Positions 4,018 through 56,509 of a stretch of 64,000 nt of DNA are shown here, in pieces. Positions within the stretch are counted from its first letter, which is position 1. Each line of letters opens with the position of its first letter. The translations under genes and the position numbers were made by a program. Below the pieces are notes generated by a model, which saw only the letters and a program-made list of their open reading frames with translations, was not told where the DNA came from and searched no databases. Source of the DNA: Asterionella formosa (lineage: Eukaryota); assembly GCA_002256025.1 (NCBI GenBank), contig NKIB01004673.1, forward strand, positions 62,001 through 126,000, given 5' to 3'.

Positions 4018-7000
4018 TGTGCATTAAACGTATTTGTTACTTCCAATTGACATTGAACCATTTCATTCGTTCAGTTTTGAGTTAGTTTATTTTGATTCCT
4101 TAATGTGTGTTTTTTGATTATATTTGTTTGAGAGCATCAGGCTAGTTGCCTGGTGCTCTCCTTTGACAGTACCAACCAAGGAGGGAGATGATAACATATT
4201 GATGAGGTTCTTGACCAATGTAAATTCTCAGACCTCCTTTCAGGTCCAACAGAAGGCCTTCGGGCCCTTGCAGCAATACCATATTTCAAATTATAAAGCA
4301 TACTCCTGCTGTAATCCATTTTGATGTTTCCTCACTTGGCTGTTGTTGAATGCTGAATCGACTCTTTGATTGTGGAAAACAAACCTAAAATCAATGAATA
4401 AATAATGGCTCTGGTTACTAGTCTCCAATCTTGACCCCCCATATAGCGTTTTGAAGCCCTGCATGAACCTCAAGGACCAGATTGATGAGCAAGGGTCTTG
4501 AGAAATACTTGAATGTTGCACTTCATCATCACCAATAAACCATGCCATCCAGTTAGCACTGGTGGCTGAGGAACGGACTTGATTAATTTGTGTATAGTAT
4601 CATCCCATTGCATATAATATACAGATGTATATTGTTACTACTGGTGGCTGGTACTATAATTCCTTATGCACAATATTATTTAGAGTACTGGTTGTAGTTC
4701 TTGCCATATCCTCAATGTTATGCAAAAATTATATGGTACTCTAGCATCATTAGGGGATTATACCGTCAACATCATGAGTGACCATTTCTAACGCATGCAT
4801 ACATTAAAATCACTTGAACTTGTCCCATACAACTGGTTGCTGCACCGGCAGTAGCTGTCCACCATGGCGGAAAGCCCATCCATCTGTTAACAAGTATACC
4901 AGCACATGACAACAACATCCCAACCGCGACTGCAACAAGCAAAAAATAATAGTTTGAAAGAGACCCATCATCGAAACAATTTAACAATCAGAATCACTAG
5001 CTGTATAAGTTCGTAGACAGTCTATCGCTTTTTCGTGCCTCCTTATTACATTTTTTTGTTTGAATTCAGGATGAAATCATGAAAATTCATAATGTTGTCT
5101 AAAACAGTTCCATTGCTTGTTGGGTAACAGAAGCATTGTGTGTATGTTATGCGCTGTATACCGGAATTTTATTTCTCTATTCAATCATCATGGAAGGCCT
5201 GCAAACTTGCTATAGACTGCTGTGTGTTACTAATTGAACAACCAAATGATGATAGCTTAAAGAATCATAATTGAACAAGCTTTCATCAAACAATCATTCC
5301 GTTCAAAAATCGTTGTTTCTGTGTTGCAATAGGAGCGAATGATGATGATTATGAACTAAAACTCCCATTTCTTTTCCTGAACATCATCCTACAAGGAAAC
5401 GTAAAAACAAGAACAAATGAGATACAATAGATATAATTGTTGAATACGCATACTAGTCAAAAATGGCTACTGTTTAATTTATGGTGATCATTATCATTCT
5501 TATTAGATGATTTATATCTAATAATATAATCAGATGATAATAATGGAATGATGCATCATACAAAGGTGATGGTTTCTATTTACAGACGAGATCACCTGAC
5601 TCGTTGCCACTGCTGCTGTCACTCTCTTTTGCCAGGCCCTCATGACTTTTGTCAAGTTATATTAATCAAGTAGACATGTCACTCATCAATTAGTTTCTTT
5701 GTATCAGACGACTTTTTTTGTGCAACCCAAACAATCATATTGACTTTGGCCATCTCAGTCGCCATTTCTTTCATCTTCGCCTCCATAGCTTTAAGCCAAA
5801 ATTCATGCTGCTTGACCTGTTCCTTTTCAGAATTTGATGCTAGGGACTTGACATATTTGGAAGCAATCCATGGGTGCCTTTGCGATATTTCATCATGATT
5901 TTGTGGGTACAACAGAAACCCCCCCCCCAGTACATGACCACAGATGGAAGCATTGTCACCTACTTTGAAGGACTGGGACAATCTCAAGCATGCTACTTAC
6001 AAGTCATAGAAAATACGATGAAACAATTTTGTTTTAAGAGCCCATGCAGGTGCTTTGCATAATCTGCTTCTGGTTAAGGATTTGTATGTTTCTTCATTCA
6101 TCTCTTTAATTCTTTCCATTAGGCTTGATGCAAGGAACTCTCTGACTGCTCATGATGGTATTTGCATCATTCCCTCCCATGTTTTTCAATTTTTCCAACA
6201 GAACTTTGATGTTACCAGGCAAGCTCCAGTTCTTGTATCAACCACAATGCTTCTTCTTTGAAACTCACTAAAATTTCAGCATCATTCATTTCCTCTGTAA
6301 TCACTGAATGGCTCCATTCCGCCTTGGTTGCCTTCATCGTTGTTGTTATTGCTTTTCTGTAACTGGCTGTGACTGCTTTTGGGTGAGACAAATCAGAATG
6401 ATCCTATGGAGGTCATCCATGCAATGAAGTAATCCATCTAAAAGAACAAGTAAACAAGAAAATGAGCACATTGCAATAACTCTGGATGTCAATTTTTACT
6501 GGCATTGTTACTCATCCTTGCATGTCACCAGACCCTTTCAGTCTTGCCTGTTCTTGTCTAGTCTTTGGCCTCCCAGACATGGTTTGATTGTTGGAATTGA
6601 ATGAGCAGTGAGTGAGAAGAGTAAGTGATGCAAATTAATGAAGCTGATCAACAAGCATCCATCAGAATGCAAAAAAACTGAGTTCGCAATGTAGATCAAA
6701 ATTGTTGTGCTGCTATTGAGTACCTTTTTACGACGGATTAGGGTAGTGCGTGCCAGCAGCATTCAAAATCATTTATGATCATGAAAAACTCCTGTCCATA
6801 AATGAGAGAACTACAAATAATACTAGATCCAACAGAAGTCCTACTGGGGAGTGTACCACAAGGTCAAATCCAAAATTGGTCAGGGTGCCGGTTTGGTCAG
6901 GTCAAAACTATACATCTAATTTTTTATGTATATATATATATAACACAAGGGCGGCAGAATATACGTACATACCTTCTTACCGGTACCAGGTACCCCTGGT

Positions 7001-7536
7001 GCCACCAGGGTACCGTTATATTGTCGAATTGTTTTGAAATTCATACATACATTCATGACGGCACTACATAGCTAATAATACCGACGACTTAAAATGCCAT
7101 GCACGCGTTTATGTTTCAATAAAATGACATGTAGGATGAAAACGTGATGTCTGAGGATACCATTACTGGTATTCATTTCGCCCATCACCTCTCCGACACT
7201 TCGTAGACGGAACTCCGGAGTAAAGTTTTCCTATATATAGATAGAGCAATTAATTTTGGCGAAAAGCTGTAGATGGGTATAGCGGCATGTACGTACATCA
7301 TCGCCAAATCCTCTACAAATAATTCTTTATTTATCCTGGTAGACCTTACTGTACATAATGCAGTAAGTTTGAAGTGGTGCATATATGTTCTATGTATATA
7401 GCATTATTTCCGCTTTTTTGTGTACAGTACCGGTATTTGAATAACACGGGAAATGCGGGATGATTCTAAAGGACTGGCATCAGCTACAGTAACCTATCAA
7501 TCACATCACCCCAGCTTTTTCGATGAATCGACCATC

Positions 7537-11526: not shown

Positions 11527-11595
11527 AATAGCATGTCGAAACGATTTCTGAGTACACCTTTATTTGCTAAGATTAGTGCACCAAGTTGAGGCCGA

Positions 11596-15873: not shown

Positions 15874-17639
15874 GATGGATGCTTGTGTGGCTAGATGTGA
15901 AAAAGAGTTTGAGCGGGTGTATGGGGACGAGGGACAGATATAGCTATGTAAAAGGCAGCCATCAGCCAACAGGAGAGAATATATTTTATGATGATTTTTA
16001 GGTTATTATCTTTGCTTGTGTTTTTTTGTTGACTATGATATTATTTCCCGGTTATAATAATAAAGTTATAGAAGCTATACCGGGTATTGTAACCATGAAT
16101 TCGAACCAAATTACAAAGCTGCCGGTAGTACCGGTATTTCCTTGGATAAATGAACCGGTATGCTTTCTACATTACACGTAAAAAATATGCTGTGTTACCG
16201 GTATGCATGAGGAGGAAAATAAGAAGCACATTTTCGTTTATCACATTTGGACCGAGCGAACAGATCCGAGTTGTCTGTATGGCTGCTGTGCACCACCCAT
16301 GTGTTTTAGCTAGTAATACCGGTAGTATGAAATATTTATACTTCTGTGGGTATTTTCGATGCATAGCAATACAAGCAAAGTAGGGGGCACGAGCTTTAAT
16401 ACTTTCATAAATAACCAGAAGCACCTCTTATATTCCATTTATTTCCGTGACGAGAGGAAAAATCACTATCCCTCAAACCTTTGCTTCAGTGATGTAAATA
16501 TGGTACCAGGTACCAGGTACCCTGGTACCTATAATGTTGACTGTTACTACAATAATATGTGAAATAATTTAGATGAATTCAATCTTGTTCTCTAATCTTG
16601 TTGGAACCATACTATAATTGTTACAGCATTTTCAGGATGTAAGGGTTCCCAAATACAAACATCATTATCAAACCCAATATTTTACCAATTTTCTTACATG
16701 ATTCCACTCCTACTGCAAACAATGAGGGTTCAACACTCGATTTCCGAAACCATTCTATTCCTTGCTGCTCAATGTTAAAAATAGCCCTAGCTAGGTCAAA
16801 ACTTGAAGCAGGGATTATGGAAACATTTTCAAACTTTCTTCATGAAATCATTATCGAAATATTTTTGAGGCTTGCCGTCATCCATGAAATCAACATTGAA
16901 AAAACTTTTGAACATGAAATGGTTGAACAGAATGACACCCTTGGGTTTTACATCCAGAAACCAAATGATCCACCCATGTTATAGCTAACAATCATAGTAC
17001 ATTTAGAATGGTCCTGGCAATATAATTTGCTAATAAATATGACACTCTTTGCATTTTGATGTTGACCCACTCACAACATTAAGCATGCCAAAGACAAGAA
17101 ATATCATGTTGCTTTCTCTTGGTGATGTTATGAATGAAATGATTGACAGCTGCTTGCTTGCTTGCCGTTGCTGATGATGATATAGAACAATGAAGGCCCC
17201 CAACAGCAGGGGTAACAAGCCCAACATCTAGCAAGCTCATGGCAGGCATGACAGGCAAATTGTACTGCTTGCATTGATGTCAGGAAGCGTTTTGGGGAGA
17301 ATTACACCTGATAATCTGTTGTCAAGCAATTATTTGAAGCTTTTTACATAATGCTCTGACTTGTTCACTCCAAGCAGTTCTTATCCATGATGCTGGAATG
17401 TGAATGTCATCTGAGCGAACCACACCTTCAATAGGTCTAAGAACAATATGTAACATTACAATGCCTTCTCATATCAATCCCAACACAAATAAAGTTTGAC
17501 AATGTTCAAAGCTATAATATATATATCTTCATTTTTATGGCGTCTTGAAACTGTTCCACTGAGATAGAATAAGTCTTATGACCCCCCCCTTGCAACATAG
17601 TTAGCAAAGATCAGTCCAAGAACAAACTTGGTTACGCCT

Positions 17640-19620: not shown

Positions 19621-20558
19621 AAATTACTTTTTCACCTTTGGGTCATTCTTCTCATTTTCGATTTGGTATCATATTTTTTGAAAAAGTATCATGCAACCAC
19701 GGCTACTCGATTTTTACCGAAAAAATCCATTCTCCACAAAAACAAAATTAAAATTGTATCACCAAAAAGTATCACGACCATTCAACGGTTAAGTTAAGGT
19801 CTTGCTTTGATACCATCAAGTTACCGTTGCTGATACCGTGTTTTGATACCAACCGTCACTTTTTGCCCGCATCATCCCGGAAACAATTTATGTACAGTAC
19901 CAGGTAGTACAGCAGATTCGGAATGATAAGAACGGCCCTTTTCGTAGTAGCTAAACAAGGTTTTTTCGTTTCCTGTGTACTCTGGGACCAGGTACCAGGT
20001 AGGGTACTGGTACCAGGTACCCTGGCAGGGGGTACCGTTAGCTGATCATGATGCTGTGCTCTCCTCTATTATAATAGCCACCCGGCACCAGGTAGTAGTC
20101 TACCGGTATATAAAATGTATATGCATCGTACCGGTATATGATACTGAATACTGAGTATCACACCGTCTCGCAATCGATTGACGGGCGAGTAATATATTTA
20201 CATACATATTACCGGTACTATGTTTTCCCGGTATCTGGTACCGGGTAGTTTAATCGCCATAATCGCTTGCTTTTAAAAAAATATTCTTTTTTTCTTATAT
20301 TGGTAGGTAGCTTCATTCATCCTGCAATGCCTTGGTCATCGCACGATGTCATTAATCTCATCTTAACTTGTTGCTGCCCCTCGATCTGAAAGCCTTTCAA
20401 ATTGTCAATAACTCAATACAGAATCTTCGAACGAAAACAAATTGGAATTGATTCACACGAGTAGTTTATACATTAGCTGAATAGTCAAGCACACAATTTG
20501 ACACCTAAACTGACACCGATACAATAAGCAAACTCAAACGAGAATACCGGTAATCTCG

Positions 20559-23913: not shown

Positions 23914-24200
23914 AAGCTGAAAATATATTTCACTTTACACTTTGTAATATTGTGGTCTATCTGTTAATAGTCTATCTAGTCTTGTTCTTGCCTGATCATT
24001 CATGTAATCCTGACCAAGACATCTCACACTTTCCTTGATCTTGTCAATATGATCTTGCTTGATTTGACAATAAGTAAGCATATTCACTTGTCAATAATTA
24101 AGCATCTCAAATCATTTGTCAATAAGTGTCAAAGCATGTCTTGGTTTCTAATCACTAAAAATATTGATCCTTGACTCATTAAATTCCATATAATTTATCA
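23914..24200 (-). repeat. 3' LTR (alignable part)
   Basis: Aligns with 26918-27244. Begins TGATAAA on the minus strand right after the PPT. Confidence 0.85.
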
Positions 24201-26917
24201 CCCTTCCCTGATCTTGAAACCAACAATCCATAGTCCCATTCATAATGTGGGTTGCATGAGTGTCATGAATTTTCTGAGTGACATTCAGTGGGAGTAGGTC
24301 TGCAAGATTCTTCAAAATATTCACATAATCAAGTCTAATATCCCCAGCCTTCACCTTTCTTGAATGAAATGATATCTCATACTATCAATGTGTTTAGGTC
24401 ATGAACCAAGCTGTTGATTCTTTGATAAAAATATTGTACCTTATTGTCTTCTGCAATGATGCTGGGCATTTCCACATATTCAACTTCATTGAGTAGATTC
24501 ATTATAAAAGCAGTTTCCTTTGATCCATCTTAAAAGAGCGACATACTCTGCTTCAGTGCTGGAAACAGTAACAATCTTTTGTCCTTTAGAAATCTAATTC
24601 ACGAGAGATGAACCACCAATGGTGCCCAAGTATGCACTTGTCGATTTCCTGGTATCTGGATTGTCCCCAAATGAGCTGTCTACCGCATCTTGAACTCATA
24701 ATTCATATGGTTGTCTCATTTTCAATTTCCTGTTCCTTTCATCAGTTCCAATGAAACCTGACAAACGTTCAAAAGCACACCAATGAGCTTCTCCTGGATT
24801 CTCTAAATGTTAAGAAAGTTCCCAACATGCATTTGCGCATACTGGTCGAACTTTCTTCACAAAATACAACAATTTTCCTACCATTGAACGATATTCTTTA
24901 TGGAGAGTCACTTTGTCTGGATTCTTTCTGAGAACAATTCGTGGCAATGCTGTGGTTGATGCATCTCTTGGATACTTTCCAAAATTATCATGATAATCTC
25001 TGAGCATAACATCCACACAATCCTCCATGCTCAACTCCAAGTAGCATCACTTTATCTTGGCCCCAATTGTACCACACTCCCAAATGTTTCTTCTAAGGGC
25101 CCTCCTCCTTCATTGTGACGAGTTTCTTGATTTCATTTTTGAAGCATTTAACATCGTTTGGCTTTTCAGCAATTGCACAATCATCGACATGTTTTCCTTG
25201 ATGAAGAATACACACGGAGCTCCCTTGCTTTGCCGCAATCCGACTTTGGTTAAGTTTTGAGCTATCTTCTTGAAGAATTGTAGCGCTGCTTGAACTGTGC
25301 CATACATGGCCTTCTCCAACCTAATGCATTTGTTTTTCATTGTTTCTTGTGTTTCGAAACCAAATCATTTCCGCCTGGGCAAATTCCACAAGTTCCTTGG
25401 AAACAGAACAACACATCCGAATGATTGCATTTGAAATCTAGCATCTAAGTTTTTCCCGTTTTGTCAAAGTCATTTTGTTGTGCTTCATTTCAAGTTCGAG
25501 TTTACCATCATGTACAAAAGTACCAAGGCTGATGATATTCTTATGAAAGGTAAGTGTGTATAGGACATTTTTCAGCAAGAGTGTCTCATTGGTCACTTTT
25601 TTTCACACACAGACAACTCCGCATTCCTTGCAAATGAATTCTTTTCCATTGCCTACAACAACGCCTACATTGACTTCTTTCATATTTGTCTTGTAATTAT
25701 TGCACATAGTTATATGACTGGTAGCGCCTGTATCTGTTAACAAACGTTCATTTTCATCACTTGACGTGCAGATTTTACTCTCACTGTTTTGGATGCTTTC
25801 ATGGTGTGCTTGATTGATCTCTTCACCCACAATTTTAATCATCACTCCAACAAATGCATATTCTGTTTCCTTGTATGTATTTTAAACCTTGGTCCATAGT
25901 CCAAAAACGTCTTGTTGTTTGTTGTCAATTCAATTTTTCAAAATCAACATCTGTATTTGACTTTTCTTCATGAATTTCGATTGTTTCAACAGTACCAACA
26001 AACATGCCAGTTTCTTTCTTTTCCTTCGTTTTCTTTTCTTTGGAGCAATCCTTAGCAATGTGTGCAGCGTACGTGCTGCACTTGAAACATTTGACACTGT
26101 GTCTTTTGTTTCTTTGTTTGCACCTGCCATATTGTTCTTGGATCGGCACCAGTTGGCTGCCTTTTGTTCTTGATTTCCACAATTCTTGCATAGTCCCTTG
26201 AATTTATTATTTGCAAACAAAGCAATATCGTTGGTATTTGCATCCTTGAACTTCCTTTTGTAGAATGCACGAAGTTTCGATTTCAATTCTGATAAAGTAA
26301 TAGTACCCATTCCTTCAATAACAGTAATGTCTTCACTGTATTCTTAAGGTAACTTATTCTCATCAGGTACATAATGACTTCAACCTCTTTCTTTTTGAAT
26401 GATAAATCAATTTGACGCATCCTGTTCCTGATGTTATCTAGAGCAATGAACCATTCATCTGAGTCTGCTTTAGTACTATACAAAGTACAAATGTTGAATT
26501 CGCCTTTTAGCTGAATCAAATCAGTAACTTGATGAGGAGCATATTGATCCTCCAAATACTGCCAGGCAAGAAAAGCATCTCCATGCATCAAATTATCTGT
26601 CTTGGCTGAGATCGCAATCCCACTGACATCAAGAATCAATAGCTGATATGCCTTGATCAGTAAACACCAAATAGGCATCATCATCGATTTGCTTTGTATC
26701 TTTGACATACACATGCCTAAAACCTTTAGATTTCGCAAGCTGAAGAGTCTTGATACTCCGCTCATGCCAAGCAGTCGCGCTTCCATCAAACTTGATCAAG
26801 TGAACAGTCTAACCTGATTTCTCATCGGCCATAACCATGTCTCTAGACCTGTAGGTTTTTTTAAAACTTGTTAAATTGTTAGTTGAAATATCGCTCATCT
26901 TATGTTTAAGATCACTA

Positions 26918-27244
26918 AAGCTGAAAACGTATTTTCACTTTACACTTTGCGATATTGTGAGCTATCTGTTAAAAGTCTATCTAGTCTTGTTCTTGCCTGG
27001 TTACTCATGTAATCCTGGACAAGAAATCTTACCCTTCCTTGATCTCATCAATATGATCTTGCTTGGTTGCATATTCATTTGTCAATAAATAAGCATCGCA
27101 TATTCACTTGACAATAAGTGAGCATCTGATTCATTTGTCAACAAGTAAGCATCTCAAATCATCTGTCAATATGCGTCACTTGTCTTGGTTTCTAATCACT
27201 AAAAATATAGATCCTTGACTTGTTGGATTCCATATATTTTATCA
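26918..27244 (-). repeat. 5' LTR (alignable part; may extend to ~26840)
   Basis: Aligns with 23914-24200 and carries extra copies of an internal tgtcaataagtaagcat-like repeat. Confidence 0.85.
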
Positions 27245-27646: not shown

Positions 27647-28624
27647 CTAAAATTGGACATCATCTGCATTTACTTGGTCCTCTTCATCCTCAACTCTGAC
27701 ACGAAGTCTTTCTCCCAATTCCATGAATTCTCCGGGGGCAACAAATCTTTCCAATTCCATGAAATCCATGGGATTGGGTACATCGAGAACTAAGAAAGGA
27801 TGTGCAACAAACCTTTGATTCAACTCATGATCACTGGTAGGATTGCGTGATAGGTGATGGGAGATTAGTTCACTGCTATTTCCAAGAAATGCATCGCAAA
27901 TTTCAATCAAAGCTCCAAGAGAGACAATGTCAATGGATATTCCAATTGATTTAAAAAGTTGAACTAGGTGTACGTCTAGTGCAATGTCACTTTCCACTTG
28001 AGTTCGGAGTGCCTGAGTCGTTGCTTTGAGTACATTAAAGTGAAACGGAGTCCCATCCTTCAAGGCTCCTTCCTGCCCCAAAGCTTCAAAGTTTTTGGCA
28101 ATGCGCTTGTCGGAAATGTCGAATATGACAAGATGAGCTGTCATGTCCTTTACATTCAGCGAGTGCCCTCCACCTCCCCCAGATTTCTGGAAAATATGAT
28201 ACGTTTCCGATTCAATCGGATTAAAATATAGGCGAAGATCAGTTTCATAGTGTTCAGCAATTGTAGATTCAAACACGATTCTATTGGGCTGGTTGCTTCG
28301 TTTCGCTATGATGTATACTTGGCCTTTACGGTTCCCCCAGCCCTGATCGACCCACCTGGCCCGAATAATCACACTGTGGACTCGATTGCAAAAGGGCAAC
28401 GGCAAGGACCGAACCAATTTATGTAAGTCGCCATTTTCTACATCCCCGTGCCATGTTGCATTCAATATGAGTGGAACCGATAAACTTAAAAAGGAAAGGG
28501 ATAGGTTCGCATGAATCTGTTTGCTGCACCGCGAGAATCGCGAGGCGTCACGATGGTTTAGAAAGGTCACTAGGTTCTTCTGCAGCTCAACCGGAAGACT
28601 GCAGCAACTTGGTTCTTCGTCCAT
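27647..28624 (-). CDS. F-box-like protein
   Basis: Probable start MDEEP at 28624. N-terminal SLPVELQKNLVTFLNHRDASRFSRCSK is F-box-like and is followed by a WVDQGWGNRKG motif. Confidence 0.7.
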   Translation of the reverse strand: MDEEPSCCSLPVELQKNLVTFLNHRDASRFSRCSKQIHANLSLSFLSLSVPLILNATWHGDVENGDLHKLVRSLPLPFCNRVHSVIIRARWVDQGWGNRKGQVYIIAKRSNQPNRIVFESTIAEHYETDLRLYFNPIESETYHIFQKSGGGGGHSLNVKDMTAHLVIFDISDKRIAKNFEALGQEGALKDGTPFHFNVLKATTQALRTQVESDIALDVHLVQLFKSIGISIDIVSLGALIEICDAFLGNSSELISHHLSRNPTSDHELNQRFVAHPFLVLDVPNPMDFMELERFVAPGEFMELGERLRVRVEDEEDQVNADDVQF

Positions 28625-29175
28625 CTGGAGATAAGTCTGCTTGCTCACGTGCTGTTTATTCAATGTGATGTGGTTGAAACGCGTTGGTTTATCTTTAGCA
28701 ACACTGTGATGCGGATACAACAAAAATAAGTCATGATTGACGAAAGAAACAGCACACCGGAACGACATACCGGTAACGTCAACACACTACCAGGTACCTG
28801 ATACTATTGTCTCGTTGTCCGTTTCGTCGTCCTTCACATGTAGCGGGTACCGGTACCTGGTACCAGTACCCTGGTACGGTACTGGTAGTCCTTGTAGCTT
28901 CGTAGGAACTGAGCGGGAATTAACTCATGCGAAAGCATAGAATGATAGAATAGCGAGCCAAGAATAAAGGATAAATTGCATAAATGGCTTTTTAGTTCAG
29001 TGCTACATATAGTTTTACGTGTCCCATTCCTGAAATCTGGGTCCGTATCCAATCTCCGGGTTTCACGGTTATCGAGATGCACTTTGCGTTGGCCGGGGTG
29101 ACGCTCAGACTGCTTGTCTGAATCTGAATCAAAGAATTGTGCCCTTCACCCTTGTGCTATAATCACTGACGATTT

Positions 29176-29387
29176 GGGAATGGCTTACCGGTAGTGGTTA
29201 AGCACGTTGCCTTTGATCTGAGGTTGTAAGGTTGGGTTCGACTCCCACACTCCTCACTGTCCTGCACGGTCTTGCGTGGTGGACAAGAAATAGTGGGTTG
29301 CCCCCCTACAAGCAGCTTGTGCCACCTTCCTAGGCACTCGGAGTTTCCCTAATGCTGTGGCTAAGACAATCACCTTTTGCAAAAGTT
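29176..29387 (+). mobile_element. tRNA-derived SINE copy 1, 5' part (interrupted)
   Basis: A-box-like TGGCTTA[CCGGTA]GTGG and B-box GGTTCGACTCC. Body aligns with the reverse complements of 44950-45296 and 56143-56509. Confidence 0.85.
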
Positions 29388-30113
29388 CGTCTGTAAAAAA
29401 AACCGTTAGGCCTAACACTTTTGCTGTAAGACCCACTGCCCCAAAAATTCTCAGCATGATGTATTATCTTTTTATTGATCATAAAAAAAACTGATTGATC
29501 ATACAGAAATACTGATTGATGTTGTTTTGGTGTTTGATCTAAAGATAGTAATCATGAGATCAAGTCAGTTATTGATTTGGTCTAACCTTTCTTGGAATGC
29601 TAATATCAAATAAAATTCTTAGCTTTTGATCTAACATTCATTACTACTGATCTAACTTATTTCTCGCATTGATTAAACCTACTATTATCATGTTCGATCA
29701 ATGATGAACACAAATCGAATTATATGGATTGCTATTTAATACTCAAATATTCTACTTCTGGTCACCCATACTTCCCACTGTGCATCCTCTATCAGAATGA
29801 GCACACAGTGCTCTTCAATACCTTAATTTTCACTTCCGGTAGCTAGCTAGTATGTTTAGATCATTGCCTCTTCAAAATGAAATGAGAGAGTAAACGAAAT
29901 TGATGATGCTTGTTCGAACCTCTACCATTGCGAATGGCAGCAAGTCACATTCTCCAATGTTCTTGTACGACTTTCCTGTAAGAGATAAGAAAAACAATCT
30001 TAGCAAAACTGATGCATCAAGTAAGCAAGGCAGCCATCTAAACGTAGATATGTGCAACGAAACAATCACATGAACAATCCATCACTCCAATTTCCGTATG
30101 AGCAGGCAATGTG

Positions 30114-30705
30114 CATATTACTTACCTGTGCTCTCATGGTTGATTGTTGCTTCCATTCAGAATGGTAGCAAGCCACATTCTCCAAGGTTCCTGTATGATT
30201 TTGAGGAGCTAATATCAATGTTAGCAAAAGTGTTGCGACGATTAAAGCATCTCCCCCAGCCACACATGGCTGTGCCATGAACTGATGACATAAAAAAATT
30301 TTATAGTAACTTCATGTCGTTCTAATCGACATAACGAGCATCAAATGAGAGTATAGTAACTTACCTATGCTCTCACTGTTGATTGATGGGTGACAGGGTA
30401 GCCTTGTTAACCCTCACATCTGCATGTATGGAAGGGAAAGCATTGTGCACAAAGATATTACTTACGTCGTAATTAGGTTGATTTTTATCGTTGGTCCTGA
30501 GGAAGTGTAAAAACTTTGAGTGATAGCAGCGCACACGAACAGCGATACAATTTTATAGTTTGCTTCGGGTCTCACACGGTACCTAACTTTTTCGAAGGAA
30601 CATTTAATACCCTACCAGTATGTATGATTAGATAAAAAAATACATGACTTGTTAACAGGAATTCGAATACGGTAGTACCCGATATACTTCCAGTTGTCAT
30701 ATCCC
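30114..30705 (+). repeat. Dispersed repeat, paralogous to 1635-2497
   Basis: Direct sequence identity with the copy at 1635-2497. Confidence 0.9.
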
Positions 30706-30713
30706 TATTTAGT

Positions 30714-31086
30714 AACTGTACCTATTACTACTCTGGAACTGTGAAACTGTAGGTTTGCCTTACCAGCATTCCCTTCTTCCCCTTGTCTCAATACCCGGTC
30801 GGAACATGATGTGGTTACTGTGAAACTGTACCTATTACTACGCTGGTACTGTGAAACTGTAGGTTTGCCCTACCAGCATTCCCTTCTTCCCCTTGTCTCA
30901 ATAACCGGTCGGAACATGACGTGGCTACAGTGAAACTGTATGTATTACTACGCTGGTACTGTGAAACTTTAGGTTTGCCCTACCAGCATTCCCTTCTTCC
31001 CCTTGTCTCAAAACCCGGTCGGAACATGAGGTGGTGGCTACAGTGAAACTGTACCTATTACTAAGCTGGTACTATGAAACTGTACC
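30714..31086 (+). repeat. Tandem repeat, ~110-bp unit, ~3.3 copies
   Basis: Unit starts AACTGTA(CC/TG)TATTACTA at ~30714, 30824, 30934 and 31047; each full unit contains TACCAGCATTCCCTTCTTCCCCTTGTCTCAA. Confidence 0.95.
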
Positions 31087-33400
31087 TTTGCGCTACCAAT
31101 CTAATGTCCATTACTGAGTATGTTGGTGCTGCATCGCTTCTGATCCAGCACTTCTTGCCCACTGTATAATCCAATAGTTGACAGACCATTATCCCTTTTT
31201 GCTTCCTTGTTCTGTCACAGTCATGTTTTTCTTGACAACTTGACATTTGCACGCTATCGATAGTGCAAAATATCACTTGTTATCTGGAATGGCAAATGTT
31301 CCGAGTGCTACAAGGAATGGAACAATCTTGGTTGTGAAGGAGATACCAATCGCAGATTTTTCAATCAGGAAAAACGTGTTTCTATGGCGTATTTCATGTC
31401 TGTTCAAGAGACAACGGAAGAGTAAGGAACGACTCTTACTGGTTAGATACTTTGATCATGATGACAAAGGCAAGGAGAAGAGACTAGATGACAGTGTCCT
31501 GGATTTCGTTCTCAACAAATTCTATGTGGTCCTAGAGTCTGGCTTGTTTAACAAAACATCATTTGAAACTTCAAGGAAATATCGGAATCATATAGGACCA
31601 GCAGGGATGATTTTATGGAAAACTCACTTGCCTCAAGATTTTAGACTACATCAGAAAGACAACAATATGCCACCAAATGCACTCATGAACTACATCCAGA
31701 CTGGCGACCATGTCCTGTTTCAATATTTCCAACTCCTTACTGGGCGGATAAATGGGACAAATCACTTTCCTCCTCGACCTGTTTTTTTTACTTTCCCAAT
31801 CACTCCTACAATTTCGGAACTTTTTGGTGACAAGTCATGAACTGCTTCTTCCGTATCGGCAACCATGTCTGGAGTTGCCTTGTTTAATTTTGCATTTTGC
31901 TTTTGCTTTGGAAGGGGAGATTTTATATCAAGTCTATCAGATTTGATAGACTCAATTAGACGCTCTAAGGAAGTAGAAACAAGATCTACCATGGGCATAC
32001 AAGCAACACAATCTTTACTTCTTGGAATGGTATTGGGAGAAGATCAACTGGCATCAACTATTTCGTTTTCACTCGCCTGTGTCAATGCATAAATGGAGAA
32101 TACACGACGTCAGTGATCTTTATTTGGAATGACAGGTATGATGAATTCCATCGCCTTGTCAGGAAAAAAAGTTTCCCAATATTGGCGATGCTTCTCAAAT
32201 GTGACCGTAATGGTTTACAGAAGCTTGTTCCTCTTTTCTTCTGTATCAATACCCAGCACCAACAATATTAGTAAAAATACAGGAATCATTTGAACGCCCC
32301 AATAACGGAGAAGTTAATCAACATCATTGGACTCATTTCGACAACCATTGTTGCTGTACGACATTGGAATCAGCTATTTATTGAATAATGGTTCTGGTAC
32401 CCTCATAAATATTTTACACTACTTCAGAGTGGCGAGAAGATATGTGTGGGACAAGCTACACTACGTATATATAAGCTATATAAATATAGCGGTCCCTTTG
32501 TGGAAAGTAGTATTTGTGTGGCAATGGGGTTAGGCTGTCCTATATATTGCCTCTGATGTTTCCAATAAAGATATTTCTTAAAATAATGGGATAGTACAAA
32601 GTTACAATTGTTATTTCGAACCCCCTGCTATTCAAGGTTCATGTGGTGCTACTATTTCCTGAATGAAATGAAGCTACTTCCTGATTATTGATGTTGCGGC
32701 TCTTTTTCTGCAGCATACAAACGTGCTCGCCAATAGCTAGTCAATGAGAATGTAAGACCCATGGCTAATTAAGGCCATGAGCAACAAAATGCATCGCCAT
32801 CTGGTCCATCTTCACTTTGATCCAAATCTCATCTTGAAGAACAGATTCGAAATACGGATCGATGTTCGCAATTGGCGAATTATGATCAAAAGGTATTATC
32901 TTCTTGATTTCAGTTGGAATTGGAATCGGGTATGACCTTCAATGCATCGCTCTCCAATTCTGCCGTATAAATTGACCAAAGCTTTTGATTTCGAGTAACA
33001 AACAAGCAATCAGACTTCGCCAGCATAATTCCCCATCAATATCGAGACCATATCATTCGTTATAAGACTGAGATCATCGTCGTCCCTGCACGAAGGTAGC
33101 TCGTACAGGATTGTTCAACAAACGCACATGATGGCTTGTAAGAAATTCGATTACTGATATGCAAATGGAGAGATAATGACGAATACTACCAGTACAAGAA
33201 TTGGATCAAAGCATGTACCGGTAGAGCATTCAAATCGGAATGGCAACAAGGAACGCACCGTTGTTGCACAGAATTCATTCTGATAGCATCGTTGGGTACA
33301 AGGTTTACATACACGTAAGGTGATCTGTGTTAAGTCATAACCTTCGCTAAAACAATAATTGATCAAAGAACAACAGCTATTGATCAATCAAACAACGTAT

Positions 33401-33735
33401 CAATATATCAGAGCATTTGGTTAGCATATCAAATTTGATAACTAATTTATATGACTTCTATCTATGCGTAACCTGACGTGTGTAAGAAAGCAATCTGACA
33501 AACAAAGTTGATTGACCACACCAACACGATCATTGATATATCAAAATTATCATCAGCATAACACAACATTTGATCAATATATCAACAATTTTGGTTAACT
33601 GATTAGATTTGGTAGCTAATATATACGAGTTCTTGTATACGCATAACCTAACATGTGTATGCTACTAACCTAATGTACAAATTTGATTGATCATACAGAT
33701 ACTGCCGTTGATATATCAAAATTATCATCAACATG
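33401..33735 (+). repeat. Diverged ~175-bp tandem duplication next to the right TIR
   Basis: caatatatca...taacct..gtgt...ttgattga...ttgatatatcaaaattatcatca occurs twice (from ~33401 and ~33575). Confidence 0.75.
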
Positions 33736-33817
33736 TCAAAATATTTGAATAATCAATCAGTTTTTTAACGTATGCTGAGTAAAACGTTAGATCTAACGGA
33801 AAATCTATTCACAGACG

Positions 33818-33900
33818 GTGGTTGGGGACTCACCTATGCTAGCAAAACTAGGAAAGCACAGTTCTTGTCTGCAGGTACCAGGTAGCACAATGGAACTTCA
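33818..33900 (+). mobile_element. tRNA-derived SINE copy 1, 3' part
   Basis: GTGGTTGGGGACTCACCTATGCTAGCAAAACTAGGAAAGCACAG continues the family sequence from 29387. Confidence 0.85.
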
Positions 33901-34093
33901 CAACCTCAACAATTGTCGAGTTCTTTAAAAATAGCGAATTTACTTCATAATTTTATGTGTATACACTGATGGTAGACCGGTATTTATTTTTGCCATGTAT
34001 ACCGGTACCCGTATGGGTTTCTGGGAATCAGTGAAATTATAGTAACAAATGTATTCATCACATCAATTCTTTCTTACGTAAGTTGAAAGCACC

Positions 34094-36749: not shown

Positions 36750-37297
36750 CGATGAAAGGCTCCATCAAATTACTAGTTATGATACCAGGACTACCAGGAT
36801 ACCTTGTGGGAAGTAACTGGGTATCTGGTTACCAGGCAGGTTCCGCTATCAAACACTCCCATTATTTTTGGATTGCTTTTTATATACACATGTAGTATTT
36901 TTTATATAAAAATATACGACATCAAAATGATTCAACATTTTTCTCGTTGCTTCTTGCTTGTTCTTGTGAGTGCTGTGAATTTTTACTGGTTGTACATAAG
37001 ATCGATAGCTGTGCTGGAATACATTTATTTAACTCCAGTACCGGGTAGATATAAATAGATATACCCCCTGGTATACCGGTACTCCCTGTACTGTTTATGT
37101 ACATACACACAGCTGAAGTGATGATAATTTTCGATGTTTCTGTTGAATGTACGGTACCCCCCTGGTACTCTACCGTAGGCACTCTTGTACTAGGTACCCA
37201 CAAAACAAGCATCCATGACGGTTGCAGAAACAGAAATGTTCAAATAATAGTGTAGTCATTTCATGCTACTCCTGTCGTCAAACCAGCCAACCATTTG

Positions 37298-38530
37298 ATG
37301 CGCGTCTACTTGTCCTATATTCCTCTATCTCTACTGTATCGCTCATCCCGTGCGATCCCAGAAAAATCTACGTCGTTTGAGGTCAGAGCTGCTTCTTCGA
37401 TGACCTTGTCGTCCTGTTCCGTTGGAGGTGGTGCCATTAATGAGAAGGAACGAAGCCTCACCAAACGAGAAAACCTGGAAAGATTACATACAGATTATGC
37501 GTTTGATCCTTCCAATCAACGATCTCATCTTTGGCACGCGTTGGAAGGTCTCCATCGATACCCGAGCTACCTTTCGCGATGGCAAGAAGCAGACATGGAA
37601 GCGTTGGAGAAGGCTCTGGAGGAGCAACTTCAACAAGTCAGACAGCAAAAGAAGGAAGTTTTGGAGAGACGTGGGCGTATTGAAATTATGATGAAGCAGC
37701 TCGATCAAACATTTATGCTCTTTTTTCCGCAAAGCTGGGACCAAGTTAAAGAAATACTAGATCCAATAGCCGCCGACGCAATCTTCAAATCAAAATGGTA
37801 TCGAACAAATCCTCCGACCATAGATGAAGTATTAAGCGGACGATATCAGGTTGAACTAGATTCTCACTTGTTAGAGGCATTGATGGAGCAAGAGCTCTTT
37901 GATGTCTATTCTATGCCACTGCTCTCACAGAGATTTTGCGATAAACTACGAGGGTTTGTCAAGGCAGTCGCAGAGTTGGGAGAGTCCGAAGAGTTCGGTG
38001 ACCTAAATGTAGGCAAACAGCCAGTTGATTTGGATACTATTGGACTCTCGTGGATCAATAACCTACTCTTCCATCTTGTCATTAGACCCATTTCTCGACA
38101 TTTATACAAGGATATAGAAACAATTGATGAGCTCGATTGGCGACAAGGCTACATCGCAGGATATTCGGCCAAACCAGCTTCACAAGGTGCAACTCCTAGA
38201 AAAAGACTCGTCTCACATACGGATGACTCGGAAGTTACCTTAAACCTTTGTATTGGTGAAGACTTTGAGGGAGGCGCTCTTCAATTCAGGGGCTTGCGAG
38301 GAACGGATGAAGGAGGCCAATTGATTGGGGCTTTTCAGCCCATTCAGGGGACAGCTCTTATCCACGCTGGACGTCACTTTCATGAAGTTACTGAAGTTAC
38401 GCAAGGAAATCGATACGCATTTATTATCTGGGCAAGATCTTGGAAAGGTTCGAGGAGGCAGACTTGCCCATGTTGCTGGTTAAATCGACGCCAAGACGAC
38501 TTGTGTTTATGCGGTTGGCGATGGAATTAA
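37298..38530 (+). CDS. 2-oxoglutarate/Fe(II)-dependent dioxygenase (prolyl/lysyl hydroxylase-like)
   Basis: HTDDSEVTLN (HxD), FEGGALQF, HAGRHFHEV and GNRYAFIIW. Cys-rich C-terminus. Start uncertain. Confidence 0.85.
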   Translation: MRVYLSYIPLSLLYRSSRAIPEKSTSFEVRAASSMTLSSCSVGGGAINEKERSLTKRENLERLHTDYAFDPSNQRSHLWHALEGLHRYPSYLSRWQEADMEALEKALEEQLQQVRQQKKEVLERRGRIEIMMKQLDQTFMLFFPQSWDQVKEILDPIAADAIFKSKWYRTNPPTIDEVLSGRYQVELDSHLLEALMEQELFDVYSMPLLSQRFCDKLRGFVKAVAELGESEEFGDLNVGKQPVDLDTIGLSWINNLLFHLVIRPISRHLYKDIETIDELDWRQGYIAGYSAKPASQGATPRKRLVSHTDDSEVTLNLCIGEDFEGGALQFRGLRGTDEGGQLIGAFQPIQGTALIHAGRHFHEVTEVTQGNRYAFIIWARSWKGSRRQTCPCCWLNRRQDDLCLCGWRWN

Positions 38531-38661
38531 AGATTGATGAACATGTGAATCATGTAGAAACATTTGTACATTGAATTCATTGGTACTGTGTCCACGACTC
38601 CTATCGTACAACTCTGACTGGGACCTTGAAATCGCGAAGCATCGGGACGAGTGGAGTCATT

Positions 38662-41283
38662 TTAAGGAGGAACGACCACTTTGATGGGACCTGCTTCTTC
38701 GACGAGTGCCACTCGAAGGACTTCGGTTCTATCAATGTCCTTTTCATCCTCTACTTCGCTCGATGTCAGAGAAATAGGTGGCAAGGGTCGACCCGTTATA
38801 TTCGAAGGACTACGGTTTTCATCCTCCTCAAACTTGGGGTACGTGACGTTGCCTGAATCGTCAAGGGCAATATTATCACTATTCTCGGAGGACTCATCCA
38901 ACTCCTTCACGCTCCCCATTTCGTTTCCCCTTCGATTCAGCATGTTGAACCTGTCGCCACATACGTCACTGATACTTGTTTCAAATGATCGTTTCACAAC
39001 TCCAGCCCCAAATAAATGTCGAGTTTGACCGTGCATACTCGCAGTCGAGTTTGTTGCTGAGCCGCCGCCGAAAGCTGTGGTTGCTTTTGCCCATCTTGAA
39101 TCCCCGACAAAGACACGTTCATTTCCTTTAAAGATCGATTGTGAGTCCATCCATTGATCGTCTCTATCCAACACGTTGATCCTTTGACCAGTTTGGTCAA
39201 ATTGATGCACAGCTTTAACAGTTTCCTTGCGCCTCTTTTCAATTTTCGGCTGCAAATATCTGATCAGGAGACCGATAAATGCAAATCCGAAACTGACAAC
39301 CCATATTCCAGTAAGTTGCGCAATAGAAAGAGCGCTTCCTTCTTCCTGTGATGCACTTTTGGGACAGCTCTTCATTGGCTCGGCATCTTTGATCAGTCCA
39401 TCGTACAACCCATCGTTTTTTAGCTTGAGAAAATATGCTATCAGCTCTTGACTAACTCCTTCGAAAATGGGTATCCCAGTCTGAACTTGACCAATTCGAG
39501 CTCCAACGATAGTTTTATTACAATGAAGGCCATTATTTTGCTCGACTACTAAGTCTTCTTCTGGAGCAAAGGCTACATGGCAAAACAAAGGGTTGCCGGC
39601 ATTGGCTTCGTGTATGTCAAGAAAGTTGAACACCCGGACTCTCGATGAACAATTAGCGCAGTTGAATCCGGGAAGACCTTTAGAAATGAAAGTAGTCAAT
39701 GTTTAGTATCAAGAAATGTCCCTTCCCAGGTGACACGCAATGTTCTTACCGTCGCCTCCAAGTTCTATGGGATCAACAACCAAGTTACTGTCGTCAATTT
39801 CAGGATATAAGGCCCTTATGGTCTCTAAATTCTTCCTTTCAGAGCAAATGCGGAGCTTGGCTGACATTACATCGGCGAGATTGCTAATTGAAGATTTTTG
39901 TGCTTGCTGTGTAAGAATGGCGGCTAAATTCGCCGTATCTGTGTAGCATGAAGAGCACGAGGTTAGATTTCTTGACTTGTGGCCGAGCTGGCGACAAACT
40001 GTTAACATCATGTACTTACAAACAGCGATAATTGTAAGGATGAAAAAGGAAATTCCGAGAAGGTTCATCATGGCACCGTAGCTTACTACCGTATGAACAT
40101 AGTTTTGCTGGAGAACAGAAAGAAGGTTGATGTAGATGGCTCTCGTTATGTGCTGATAATACGGCACCCGCCTTTCTTCGACTCGTTCTATCGATCGCCT
40201 TTTATTTTCTTTCACAATCACATTATGTTTCGCTGGATAGGAACTTCCAGGATGGTTGTACTCGTGAATAACCATTAAAGCTCCAAGAAAGGGAATCACA
40301 AAAAAAACTACAAACAGCCAAGTCTGAACCTGGAATGGAGCAAAGACAAGGGAAAGACTCTCTTTGAAATCATCCCAGTTGCTAAGCTGCGTTTGAAGTT
40401 GGACGACAAGGTTCAGCTCCTGACTGTTGAGAATCAACCAATCAGCGGTTATCGCTCGTTGATCCGTAATGGTATACTGTGCCAAACAAAAATCCAAATA
40501 CCCAAGCGAAGTCGCATACACACAAAAATCAAAGGAGCTTGAACCAAAGTAAATCAAGCTTCGATTAGCCAAAAACGATGGGGGAGTAGTTAACTTGATC
40601 TTAAAGTTGCCTCTAGAAGCAGCCGCAATTGCAAAATCTACAACAGGACCAAACCAAAGGGATAAAGGTCCCTCGAATTGCTGTGGAGGGTGTCTGAATG
40701 CACCAACCCATCCGCCACTGTTTGAGTTAAGGCCAACTTTGAAAGTTCTGTTTTCAAGGGATCGAATTCGGGAATTCGAGACAAAGGAATCCACATCCCA
40801 ACAAGTAGCATAGGAATAGAATCGCTGGCTGTTGGGAAAGAATTGAGATCGCCGAAAAAGCAGTGAACAAGTGTTTGGATTGACGTAACAGAAAGATCGT
40901 TCACAGTATGCCCTATCGCAACTTTCTTTTTGTGGCGCAATGTTAGGATCGAACGCGCAGGAACCATCAGTACAACTAGCTGTCTCTGCATCATGTGTGC
41001 CGCAACCAATACCATATGAATAGGGGTTTACAGACCCAAGCAATCCCAGCAATGTGTCAGTCAAGTCTTCTGCAGCAACATCTGTAATTGTATCGTTCGT
41101 CAGACAGGGACATGCATCATTTCCGTTTCTAAAAAAGTCTCGCTCCGTCACATTTTGGCCTTCGACGATTAACGCTGCCATTGACGCCAGCCAAAGAAGC
41201 AATCTAAGCCATCTCAACCCTTGATAGCCCATCTTACTAATACAGGAAACAAGAACCAATAATAGAGTGGCGTTGATATTCAT
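38662..41283 (-). CDS. Ionotropic glutamate receptor-like channel; 3 exons
   Basis: Splicing an intron at ~40018-39939 restores the M3 gate motif YTANLAA. Also YTITDQRA (S1), APFQVQTW pre-M1 and LSIAQLTGIW pre-M4. Second intron ~39749-39679. Confidence 0.8.
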
Positions 41284-44949: not shown

Positions 44950-45296
44950 TAAAAATTGAAACCCACTTATAACGCGCTGTCTAAAACCACGGAATTACAT
45001 GTGGAATTTCATAGCACGGCCTGACAACAAGTCTGTGTGCTTCCCTAGTTTTGTTAGCGTAGGTGAGTCCCCAACCATCTTTCGTGAAAGTCGATCATCT
45101 TAGCCGCAGCGTTAGCAGGAACTCTGACTGCCTAGGAAGACAGCACACTGCTTGTAGGGGGGCAACCACTTTTCTTGCACACAAGGCAAGATCACGCAGA
45201 ATGGTGAGGAGTGTGGGAGTCGAACCCAAAAATTGCGGGAATCAAGCCACACAACTTCAAATAAAAGGCATTGGGTCCAACCAACTGATACATTCC
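44950..45296 (-). mobile_element. tRNA-derived SINE copy 2
   Basis: Family sequence flanked by a 14-bp direct repeat CCTCCTTTCTAATT (44936-44949 and 45297-45310). Confidence 0.88.
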
Positions 45297-51942: not shown

Positions 51943-52011
51943 CTTGCATCAACAATCATTGTCAAAATAGCACTTTCGACTTTTGATGGTTCCTCGTACG
52001 GAGTACCGGTA

Positions 52012-52211
52012 CCTGCAGGTTGTGGTCATTTTGCTTAAATAAAAAATTTAATATGGGATAAAGAAAGATACATATTTAGCTTCAGCACAATTATCGGTAC
52101 CGGTACCTGGTAGTACCAGCAAGTTGCGGTCATTTTGCTTAAATAAATATTTTAATCTGGGATAAAGATAGCTAAATCTTTAGTTTTAGCAAAATTACCG
52201 CAACTTGCAGG
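52012..52211. mobile_element. TA-flanked MITE (52116-52211) with a tandem truncated copy (52012-52095)
   Basis: TA|CCAGCAAGTTGCGGTCATTTTGCT ... AGCAAAATTACCGCAACTTGCAGG|TA, i.e. 24-bp TIRs with 2 mismatches. The upstream copy starts TA|CCTGCAGGTTGTGGTCATTTTGCT. Confidence 0.82.
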
Positions 52212-52287
52212 TATCTCGTTCATCATCGGTACAAATACATGATACCTGTATGTGTGTACCGGTAGTCTAGTCAATTGATTCGCAACG

Positions 52288-54891: not shown

Positions 54892-56142
54892 GATGAACGA
54901 TGGATCGGACGAGTAATAAAAATAGGAGGAGCCACAATGACGGAAGTTATCGAAATGCCATCGTCGCCATTATTTATACCGAGAGGTTCAGGCTTACTTA
55001 TTACTATACGGGTACAGCACGCATCCTACAATCCTTGCCCTGATAATTCGTTGGTCTGCATAAGGGTTCTAGTTAGGGTTAATCGAAGCGTCTTCTTGCC
55101 TACATTCCTGTGTAAACGCAACAGGTACAAGCAACAGGAGGAAAACCGTACCAGGTACACAGGAGCCGAAAAGTACCCAATTTGGACTCAAAATTGGGAT
55201 TTTGAGTGTTTTTCGGGGGGTTTTCAATGTCCGAAATCCAAATTGGGATTTTTGCCGAATCGGTATTTTTGATAGCAATTTATGGTTAACCTTAATGGAG
55301 ATTTTTATTTAACTTTGCAGAAATACCAAATTGTTATCATTTGCTATCGATTTGGATCCGAATTGGTATGGCATAAACAATGTCGGTTTTGATGTCAGCC
55401 ATGAAGGGGCTGACCTGATGGTGTGAGATACCGATAGGCAGACAAGGCGTGAGATATCGATAGGCAGACAAGGCTCAGCTGTTGGTTAGTTGCATCGATT
55501 TGCTGGCATCACTACCAGTAGTGTCTTTACTGATCGCATATTAAGGAATACATATCAAACATACTATCTTTCTACATGAGGGTTGGCATACTCGAAAAAA
55601 TGCGTTTTTTACTAGTTACATACTAGACGTGAACATATACTGCCTCTTTTTCTGGAATTAAATAATTAGCTAGTATCTAAATATATTAATCGAAACAAAT
55701 TTAAAATATATTCATACATTGGGTACATACATGATTAAGTAAATTTTATAGTATGCTATTGTTAAAGAACTCGACAATTGTGGAGGTTGTGAAGTCGCAC
55801 TTGGCCCCCCAGAGGGCCTTAGACCTGGTTGTTGTCTGCCTCACCACCCGGAAGCCAAGGGACTACATAAACAAAGCAGGTGGACAATGCGGGAATCGAA
55901 GGTGCAGAGTTGGATATCTTTCCAGTAGAATCGCGCATGACAAAGCCGAGGAGGCAGCACAGTACTATGTTAATTGTACTGCTGTAGTTATTGAATTGCT
56001 AAAAGACTCTAAGGAGCAAACAAAAAGAAGAATGAATATGCGAGCTTATGGAGTTGCTCTTTATAAATTTCTCGATGTTAGGGTCAAATTCGAAGATGGT
56101 GTTAAAGAGGAAATGAGGATCACTTAGATAACAGCAATTCTA

Positions 56143-56509
56143 AAAGTTAGTATGTTTTATAGCCCATTCGTACTCCCCTCTTTCAAGGCAAATATTTCAT
56201 TGTGCTACCTGCTGACAAGACCTGTGCTTCCCTAGTTTTGTTAGCATAGTTGAGTCCTCAACCACCTTTCGCGAAAGGTGCTCGTCTTAGCCGCAGCGTT
56301 AGGGGAAACTCCGACCGCCTAAGAAGGCGGCACAAGCTGCTTGTAGGGGGGCAACCCACTATTTCTTGCACACCAGCCAAGACCGTGCGGGACGGTAAGG
56401 AGTGCTGTGGGAGTCAAACCCAACAATTGCTTCTCAAAAAAATTGCGGGAATCGAACCTCACAACCTCAGATAAAAGCCGACGTGCTTAACTACTAAGCC
56501 ATTCCCTAC
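56143..56509 (-). mobile_element. tRNA-derived SINE copy 3
   Basis: Head GGGAATGGCTTAGTAGTTAAGCACGTCGGCTTTTATCTGAGGTTGTGAGGTTCGATTCCC (A and B boxes). 18-bp TSD TAGATAA(C/T)AGCAATTCTA at 56125-56142 and 56510-56527. Confidence 0.9.

Follow-up and report, generated by a model that had tools for sequence, protein, structure and literature searches.

TA-framed palindromic words in a gene-dense stretch of the Asterionella formosa genome as probable excision scars of Tc1/mariner-type elements

We analysed a 64-kb stretch of the genome of Asterionella formosa (GenBank assembly GCA_002256025.1, contig NKIB01004673.1, positions 62,001 to 126,000; hereafter the window, with positions counted from its first letter). 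It carries many short words, such as TACCGGTA and TACCAGGTA, in which a TA stands on either side of a small CC...GG core. We think it probable (roughly 70%) that these words are excision scars of TA-targeting cut-and-paste elements of the Tc1/mariner type. As to the source elements, the best explanation is that they were mostly short, non-autonomous MITEs (miniature transposable elements that have inverted repeats) with ends of the form 5'-CC(A/T)G.... An earlier reading of the window's letters (the original prediction) had proposed that the words are excision scars, and this proposal is now supported by insertions that are derived, by the TA flanks, and by a MITE with matching ends. We infer excision itself from the anatomy of the scars, and likewise the stagger of the cut, the reuse of scars as targets, and the preference for gene-upstream DNA.

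Among the motif words, just two sites have a cleanly readable ancestral state, and both are in a short interspersed nuclear element (SINE). Copy 1 of this SINE, on the plus strand, is split: its 5' half, with a transfer RNA (tRNA)-like head, is at 29170..29390 and its 3' half is at 33817..33900, with a 4.4-kb repeat between the halves. The first word, TA-CCGG-TA at 29186..29193, is in the A-box region (inside GGCT-TACCGG-TAGTGGTT; full context GGCTTACCGGTAGTGGTT), and the second, TA-CCAGG-TA at 33876..33884, is in the 3' half (inside GCAGG-TACCAGG-TAGCAC; full context GCAGGTACCAGGTAGCAC). At the matching places, copy 3 (56130..56506, minus strand), which is full length and which we used as the reference state, reads GGCTTAGTAGTT (GGCT-TA-GTAGTT) and GCAGGTAGCAC (GCAGG-TA-GCAC). 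Copy 2 (about 45036..45270, minus strand) is more diverged and also lacks both inserts. The differences between copies 1 and 3 that had first drawn attention are thus confirmed as clean insertions of 6 and 7 nt at a TA, and they make up two of the five indels between these copies. Both sites fit a single TA at the empty site, with the scar as the derived state.

Many more copies of the SINE are found in the contigs of independent public sequencing runs (X1, X2, X6, and X7, with X2 from a different study than X1), which we aligned to the window. DNA of the window occurs in runs from at least four studies, labelled as algae and as lake-water and freshwater metagenomes. The indels and joints that we report from these contigs are among the matches listed, which are dominated by the high-copy repeats at 23.3-34.0 kb. 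From other SINE copies, 133 contigs (104 from X1 and 29 from X2) align from 29192 (TAGTGG...) onwards and carry ...GGGAATGGCT right before TAGTGG, with the six letters TACCGG absent. Contigs of other copies, in up to four runs, also join 29315/29377 straight to 33817/33819, so the two sites sit in one SINE copy that was split by the repeat. The depth over the SINE in X1 is about 150 times that of single-copy DNA. A metagenome scan with a 20-mer from the SINE core returned two loci, L001 and L002. We rejected L001 as a SINE copy, as it is a chance match in GC-rich DNA that does not contain the SINE. L002 is a 1110-bp contig from an independent metagenome with the same SINE; its copy is truncated at the 5' end, so that the first site is not covered, and it lacks the second insert. 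Because the first insert is missing from copies 2 and 3 and from all 133 contigs, and the second from copies 2 and 3 and from L002, the motif was not ancestral in the SINE and then deleted from other copies, which is the alternative that had been raised at the outset. The words at these two sites are derived insertions at a single TA.

As for the SINE itself, its tRNA-like part had no match with ARAGORN or in Rfam. In copy 3, GGCTTAGTAGTT and GGTTCGATTCC resemble what we take to be the consensus of the RNA polymerase III A and B boxes.

Across the window, words of this kind are far more frequent than expected by chance. Under a dinucleotide model, TACCGGTA is expected 0.25 times in the 64 kb and occurs 25 times, and it is the most over-represented 8-mer. 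TACCAGGTA occurs 10 times and TACCTGGTA 3 times (0.12 expected for each), and GGTACC occurs 39 times (5.6 expected). If we count TACC and GGTA with at most one base in between (TACC-N0-1-GGTA), there are 42 words, whereas 100 first-order Markov simulations averaged 0.53 and never gave more than 3. The excess of GGTACC-type motifs in the window is thus confirmed. Overall, there is about one scar word per 1.5 kb, and there are several per promoter. The 30-base flanks on each side of the 42 words are not related to each other, so the words are not pieces of a single dispersed repeat. Also, X1 contigs match 16094-16527 and 19845-20567, which contain clusters of words, with 0 differences, and an X2 contig spans 27186-28999 with 7 substitutions and no gaps. 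Since contigs from independent runs reproduce the clusters, the words are not an artefact of the assembly.

These numbers bear on the simplest alternatives, which are that the words arose by replication slippage, as a microsatellite-like expansion of GGTACC, or that they reflect chance or assembly error. Some of the words do lie in tandem arrays (16502-16530 and 28846-28890), as slippage would suggest, but the units of these arrays are unequal in length (6, 7, or 8 nt) and in sequence, and most words are single and isolated, in unrelated contexts. With 0.53 words expected and with independent assemblies that contain the same words, chance and assembly error do not fare better, and we consider this whole group of explanations very improbable.

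The words are also found beyond the window. The L002 contig contains three more clusters of TACC/GGTA-type words. In L002, TACCGGTA also occurs at 895-902, 2 bases past the 3' end of the SINE copy (...CTAACTTTTAC-TACCGGTA-TACG). Scans with degenerate patterns of the motif arrays gave 7 viral and 109 prokaryotic loci. For a 17-mer in 596 Gb, chance alone would give about as many, and none of these viral or prokaryotic loci reached a density of words like that of the window.

Some shorter words are also more common than expected in the window as a whole. TAGTA occurs 76 times and TACTA 72 times (40 and 42 expected), which may reflect minimal scars, as at 30672 (see below), or composition alone. 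TACAGTA occurs 8 times and TACTGTA 4 times (2.8 expected for each). At 7421-7435 and at 19891-19915, TA-CAG-TA directly adjoins TA-CCGG-TA or TA-CCAGG-TA, perhaps as the trace of a second, Tc1-like family whose ends read CAG.

What is constant about the words is the TA on each side. CCGG is flanked by TA on both sides in 25 of its 95 occurrences, while the next commonest pair of flanks was seen 4 times. CC(A/T)GG has these flanks in 13 of 92 cases and CC(C/G)GG in 4 of 26, and none of 11 other 4-nt palindromes that we tested (GGCC, CGCG, GCGC, CATG, and others) has a comparable bias. The original prediction had described each event as a TA duplication plus a core of 4-5 nt, and a TA on both sides is indeed far more common than chance would give. 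More broadly, there are 98 tokens in which a run of C, an optional A or T, and a run of G lie between two TAs, as compared to a simulated mean of 18.4 and a maximum of 28 (100 simulations). The mirrored control, with a G run and then a C run, gives 37, which includes 23 instances of the unrelated TAGCTA. Core lengths range from 1 to 9 nt (variants include CCGG, CCWGG, CCAG, CGG, G, and CCCTGG). A constant TA frame around a variable core points to the end joining of two short overhangs rather than to a fixed binding site. Some tokens with longer runs recur as well (TA-CCAGGGGG-TA, TA-CCCCCTGG-TA, and TA-CCCCCCTGG-TA, at 2655, 37065, 37160, 48294, and 20025); these could derive, as stubs, from the inverted repeat of some other element, or they could be untemplated additions.

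If the words are scars, then we might hope to find an element whose ends match their cores. A 96-bp MITE at 52114..52213 (plus strand) has TA on both sides, and its ends are CCAGCAAGTTGCGGTCATTTTGC and, when reverse-complemented, CCTGCAAGTTGCGGTAATTTTGC. Its layout is TA-CCAGCAAGTTGCGGTCATTTTGC...GCAAAATTACCGCAACTTGCAGG-TA, or in shorter form TA-CCAGCAAGTTGCGG...CCGCAACTTGCAGG-TA. The inverted ends are about 24 bp long and match each other at 14 of the first 16 bases. It shares with Stowaway-like MITEs the terminal inverted repeats, a TA duplication, a length below 500 bp, and no open reading frame (ORF). Its termini are CCA... and ...AGG, each adjoining a TA, so the core of the words is the same as the terminal 2-3 nt at either end of this one family. 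A second, degenerate copy lies next to it at 52010..52099 (plus strand); it begins TA-CCTGCAGGTTGTGGTCATTTTGC..., while on the right it is cut back to ...ATTATCGG-TA. These two adjacent copies are the only members of the family in the window. Between them is the array TA-CCGG-TA-CCTGG-TA-G-TA (52098..52115), and TA-CCGG-TA also occurs to the left of the degenerate copy. Elements with CC...GG ends had been postulated from the words alone, and here is one that sits beside an array of them. A degenerate pattern for the inverted repeat of this MITE had 0 matches in the viral contigs and in the genome contigs that we scanned.

The truncated right end of the degenerate copy raises another possibility, that the words are remains of elements rather than footprints of their departure. 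Internal deletion or aborted gap repair would then have left stubs of inverted repeats, or else error-prone end joining would have made templated insertions in single events, in either case from elements with repeats that start with CCAGGTACC or CCAGGGGG. GGTACCCCTGG-TGCCA-CCAGGGTACC at 6989-7014 does look like a pair of stubs, and longer tokens recur (TACCAGGGGGTA, and CCCTGG...CAGGGGGTACCGTTA at 7005 and 20025). Yet the commonest form by far is the minimal TA-CCGG-TA (25 instances), in which at most 2 nt per side could come from an inverted repeat, and the inserts in the SINE are exactly 6 and 7 nt. It seems to us quite unlikely that remains of this sort account for the words.

How might excision give these words? 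Under the established model for mariner elements, the element would insert at a TA and duplicate it. For excision, the transposase would cut exactly at the 3' ends of the element and 2-3 nt inside its 5' ends, which would leave each flank with TA plus CC or CC(A/T) as a 3' overhang. Joining of the 2-nt overhangs would give TA-CC+GG-TA, which is TACCGGTA, and joining with an overlap of one base would give TA-CC(A/T)GG-TA. The two ends of the MITE differ at their third base, with A in one and T in the other, so the tips of the CCA and CCT overhangs could pair without a mismatch to give CCAGG (or CCTGG on the other strand). Trimming or filling of the ends would lead to the rarer forms CCAG, CTGG, CGG, G, CCGGG, and CCCTGG. 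Arrays such as GGTACCAGGTACCAGGTACCCTGGTACC could form by repeated insertion and excision at the TAs of old scars, or by templated repair. The cognate Tc1/mariner transposase, with a DDE/D active site, would have inverted repeats that match CCWGCAAGTTGCGG. This scheme agrees with the mariner cleavage model in the excerpt of PMC2642840 that we draw on, in which footprints in vivo are consistent with cleavage at the 3' end and, for the 5' end, with a break 2-3 nt within the element. We also considered a hairpin origin for the palindrome, as with hAT or P-type elements, and rejected it by inference: P-nucleotides from a flank that ends in ...TA would give TATA and not CCGG.

Scars of this type are familiar from other systems. 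Sleeping Beauty leaves the scar TAC(A/T)GTA, and Tc1 and Tc3 leave footprints too. As in these canonical footprints, a duplicated TA encloses what would be the 2-3 terminal nt of each end, and there is an A/T ambiguity in the center, as expected from joining two 3' overhangs. The canonical footprints have CA..TG or C(A/T)G as their core, and the words here have CC..GG. The words also differ in that they are about 100-fold over-represented, form tandem arrays, and are concentrated upstream of genes. The usual scar of the mariner element Mos1 keeps 3 nt of one end only. The 5' inverted repeat of Mos1, which is from Drosophila mauritiana, begins TA-CCAGGTG (as given by an oligonucleotide in the same excerpt of PMC2642840). 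Its first five bases are the CCAGG of the window's scars, and Mos1 shares with our scheme the duplicated TA and, as far as that excerpt goes, the 5' break 2-3 nt inside. In contrast, the repeat of the window's MITE (CCAGCAAGTTGCGG...) has only its first four bases in common with Mos1. For Tc1/mariner elements in general, footprints are usually 2-4 bp, according to the portion of PMC7913693 that we used. The window's MITE also resembles the Stowaway-like, mariner-derived MITEs of grasses in being short and non-autonomous and in having TA duplications. Excisions of Stowaway-like MITEs can be recognised by comparing genomes, as described in the parts of PMC4423477 and PMC1925063 that we cite. So the mechanism is of the known Tc1/mariner footprint type, and the words depart from the cases described so far by their scale and uniformity, by their tandem arrays, and by being concentrated upstream of genes. 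We found no report in the literature of this word, of this inverted repeat, or of a build-up of scars on a genome scale, and the organism's genome paper could hold one.

Several observations weigh against an origin by excision. First, among the listed matches of public-run contigs to the window, we saw no locus where one allele or strain has the element while another has the scar. Second, Pfam gave no Tc1/mariner transposase in 64 of the window's 94 ORFs of at least 90 amino acids, the search having left out the 30 that are nested in or overlap longer genes. Third, there is one MITE family with two copies, as against at least 42 scars, so the ratio of scars to elements is very high. Fourth, the long runs of C and G in some tokens (CCAGGGGG and CCCCCCTGG) are not explained by simple end joining. 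Fifth, canonical footprints are rare in rice, where just 8 of 94 excisions left a plain duplicated target and most left deletions and filler DNA (as reported in the cited part of PMC4423477), while in the window a single, uniform type of scar dominates and scars far outnumber the resident elements. Finally, 12 gene starts have 34 of the 42 words in the 700 bp upstream of them, which is also what we would expect of a functional promoter element.

This last point needs a closer look. The window is gene-dense, with long ORFs that include the largest subunit of RNA polymerase III, ChaC-RCC1, Der1, PIG-U, a WD40 protein, and an alpha-kinase. Together, the stretches within 700 bp upstream of the 12 ORFs make up 12% of the window (7,789 bases); the gene starts are our own first-ATG calls, and the upstream test was framed post hoc, when we had already seen the pattern. 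The eight words outside of these stretches are at 2241, 2303, 2738, 28768, 33216, 33876, 34000, and 63902. There were no words in the short gaps between convergent genes (11526-11599 and 38530-38665) or in the remnant of a long terminal repeat (LTR)-type element at 23928-27244. The distance from word to ATG ranges from 14 to about 660 bp, and the position is not fixed.

Many of the upstream words are in clusters or arrays. At 6978..7016, about 440-470 bp upstream of a coiled-coil gene (first ATG at 7453), is the array TA-CCGG-TA-CCAGG-TA-CCCCTGGTGCCACCAGGG-TA-CCGT-TA. A cluster of six words at 16078..16530 is upstream of the RPC1 gene (first ATG at 15873, minus strand); it includes the array TA-CCAGG-TA-CCAGG-TA-CCCTGG-TA-CC-TA at 16504-16530, and X1 contigs end at 16502-16527. 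Eight words at 19893..20552 are upstream of a gene that starts at 20559, and these include TA-CAG-TA-CCAGG-TA-G-TA and TA-CCAGG-TA-GGG-TA-CTGG-TA-CCAGG-TA. Upstream of the minus-strand gene at 27650-28786 is a cluster at 28768..28890, with TA-CCGG-TA-CCTGG-TA-CCAG-TA-CCCTGG-TA-CGG-TA-CTGG-TA at 28846-28890. Between the divergent genes for ChaC-RCC1 (minus) and an OGFOD2-like protein (plus), at 37039..37198, are TA-CCGGG-TA, TA-CCCCCTGG-TA-TA-CCGG-TA, and TA-CGG-TA-CCCCCCTGG-TA.

Could the words be a promoter element and nothing else? A dimeric or general factor might bind TACC/GGTA half-sites, and selection would then keep several of these palindromes ahead of most genes, with no transposon in their origin. 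The pattern just described is what makes this attractive: most of the words fall in a small part of the window just ahead of first ATGs, there is a cluster at nearly all of the gene starts that we looked at, stretches derived from transposable elements and other non-coding stretches are poor in words, and the main word is perfectly palindromic. On the other hand, the distance to the ATG is unconstrained, and a core that varies in length and composition between constant TA flanks is the opposite of what a binding site looks like. Furthermore, the words of known ancestral state arose as clean insertions at TA, some words are within SINE or transposon sequence (29186, 33216, and 33876), and a MITE with matching ends sits inside one of the clusters. 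Because it leaves the insertions, the TA frame, the variable core, and the MITE unexplained, we consider a promoter element unlikely as the sole origin of the words. Scars may also have a secondary use in promoters, alongside a transposon origin. The concentration upstream of genes was not part of the original prediction, and because of it a regulatory reading stays in play, whether added to excision or as its rival. It would be explained by an element that prefers gene-upstream DNA, but it would also be explained if unique upstream DNA is older than the young repeats, or if the words have a function. Either the elements target promoters, or the scars also act in promoters.

Returning to excision scars, there are a few other candidate insertions in the window. 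At 30670..30679, one copy of a high-copy repeat reads CGG-TA-G-TA-CC where a paralog at 2464 and most other copies read GGTACC. The 3 extra nt at 30672 are left out in most copies (by depth, 6912 of 10335 in X1, 87 of 87 in X2, and 27 of 27 in X6). In another repeat, 15 nt at 19886-19900 that include TACCAGGTA are absent from the consensus of 45 X1 contigs; this case is less clean, as the alignment was made by eye and two more indels are close by. An X7 contig over 28420-29211 has 14 gap letters and an X2 contig over 16500-18438 has 8, and such gaps in single-copy contigs that cross the clusters hint at indel polymorphism.

The repeat that split SINE copy 1 occupies 29391-33816, is 4.4 kb long, and has inverted ends (GTCTGT..CCGTTAG..CTAAC at both ends). 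In X1, its word depth reaches about 1000 times the single-copy level. It contains 110-bp tandem repeats at 30701-31100, and a partial second copy, 97% identical, is at 1634-2434. The paralogs differ by 218 bp (2163-2380 as compared to 30583). We rejected this segment as a TA-flanked element because it has no inverted repeats; it contains a site that resembles a splice donor.

Other repeats in the window can be described briefly. The degenerate LTR-type element at 23928-27244 has direct repeats at 23928-24200 and 26933-27244, and its ORFs gave no Pfam domain. In X1, a contig runs from 24044 straight on to 27096, and this suggests that solo-LTR forms exist elsewhere. A second tRNA-like head, at 18340-18400 (TGGCTTAGTGGTTAGC), belongs to another SINE-like repeat that is free of inserts, and 18002-19335 is about 25-30 times as deep in X1 as single-copy DNA. 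A segment of 40-50 nt (ACTTCACAACCTC..TTGTCGAGTTCTTTAA) occurs at 33891-33933, 46124-46166, and 55755-55807 with different neighbours, and it resembles the end of yet another repeat family. Finally, a CT-rich stretch of low complexity at 58364-59382 has open frames that overlap each other, and its GC skew is -0.31, with no Pfam match and no motif words.

What would these observations mean if taken together? One picture is that, in this freshwater microbial eukaryote, mariner-type MITEs cycle at TAs upstream of genes, that old scars become preferred targets and grow into arrays, and that the palindromic scars (TACCGGTA and GGTACC) become building blocks of promoters. As a joint claim, this is speculative, and we think it rather doubtful. 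If it is true, then one or a few MITE families and gene-upstream DNA that is presumably free of nucleosomes would be involved, and the cycling would be frequent enough for scars to become the most over-represented word of the genome. Excision, and not insertion, would then be a main source of promoter turnover, and possibly of factor-binding sites. There is a practical consequence as well: the words break short-read assemblies at promoters, as with the contigs that end upstream of RPC1. The scars of cut-and-paste excision are usually rare and messy, and it usually takes a comparison of genomes to see them. Here, one genome sequence on its own appears to hold a dense and legible record of excision. 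If this is true across the genome, then excision events, the choice of targets, and the outcomes of repair could be counted directly in a natural population of a microbial eukaryote, and we would have a measure of how much promoter sequence is created by excision.

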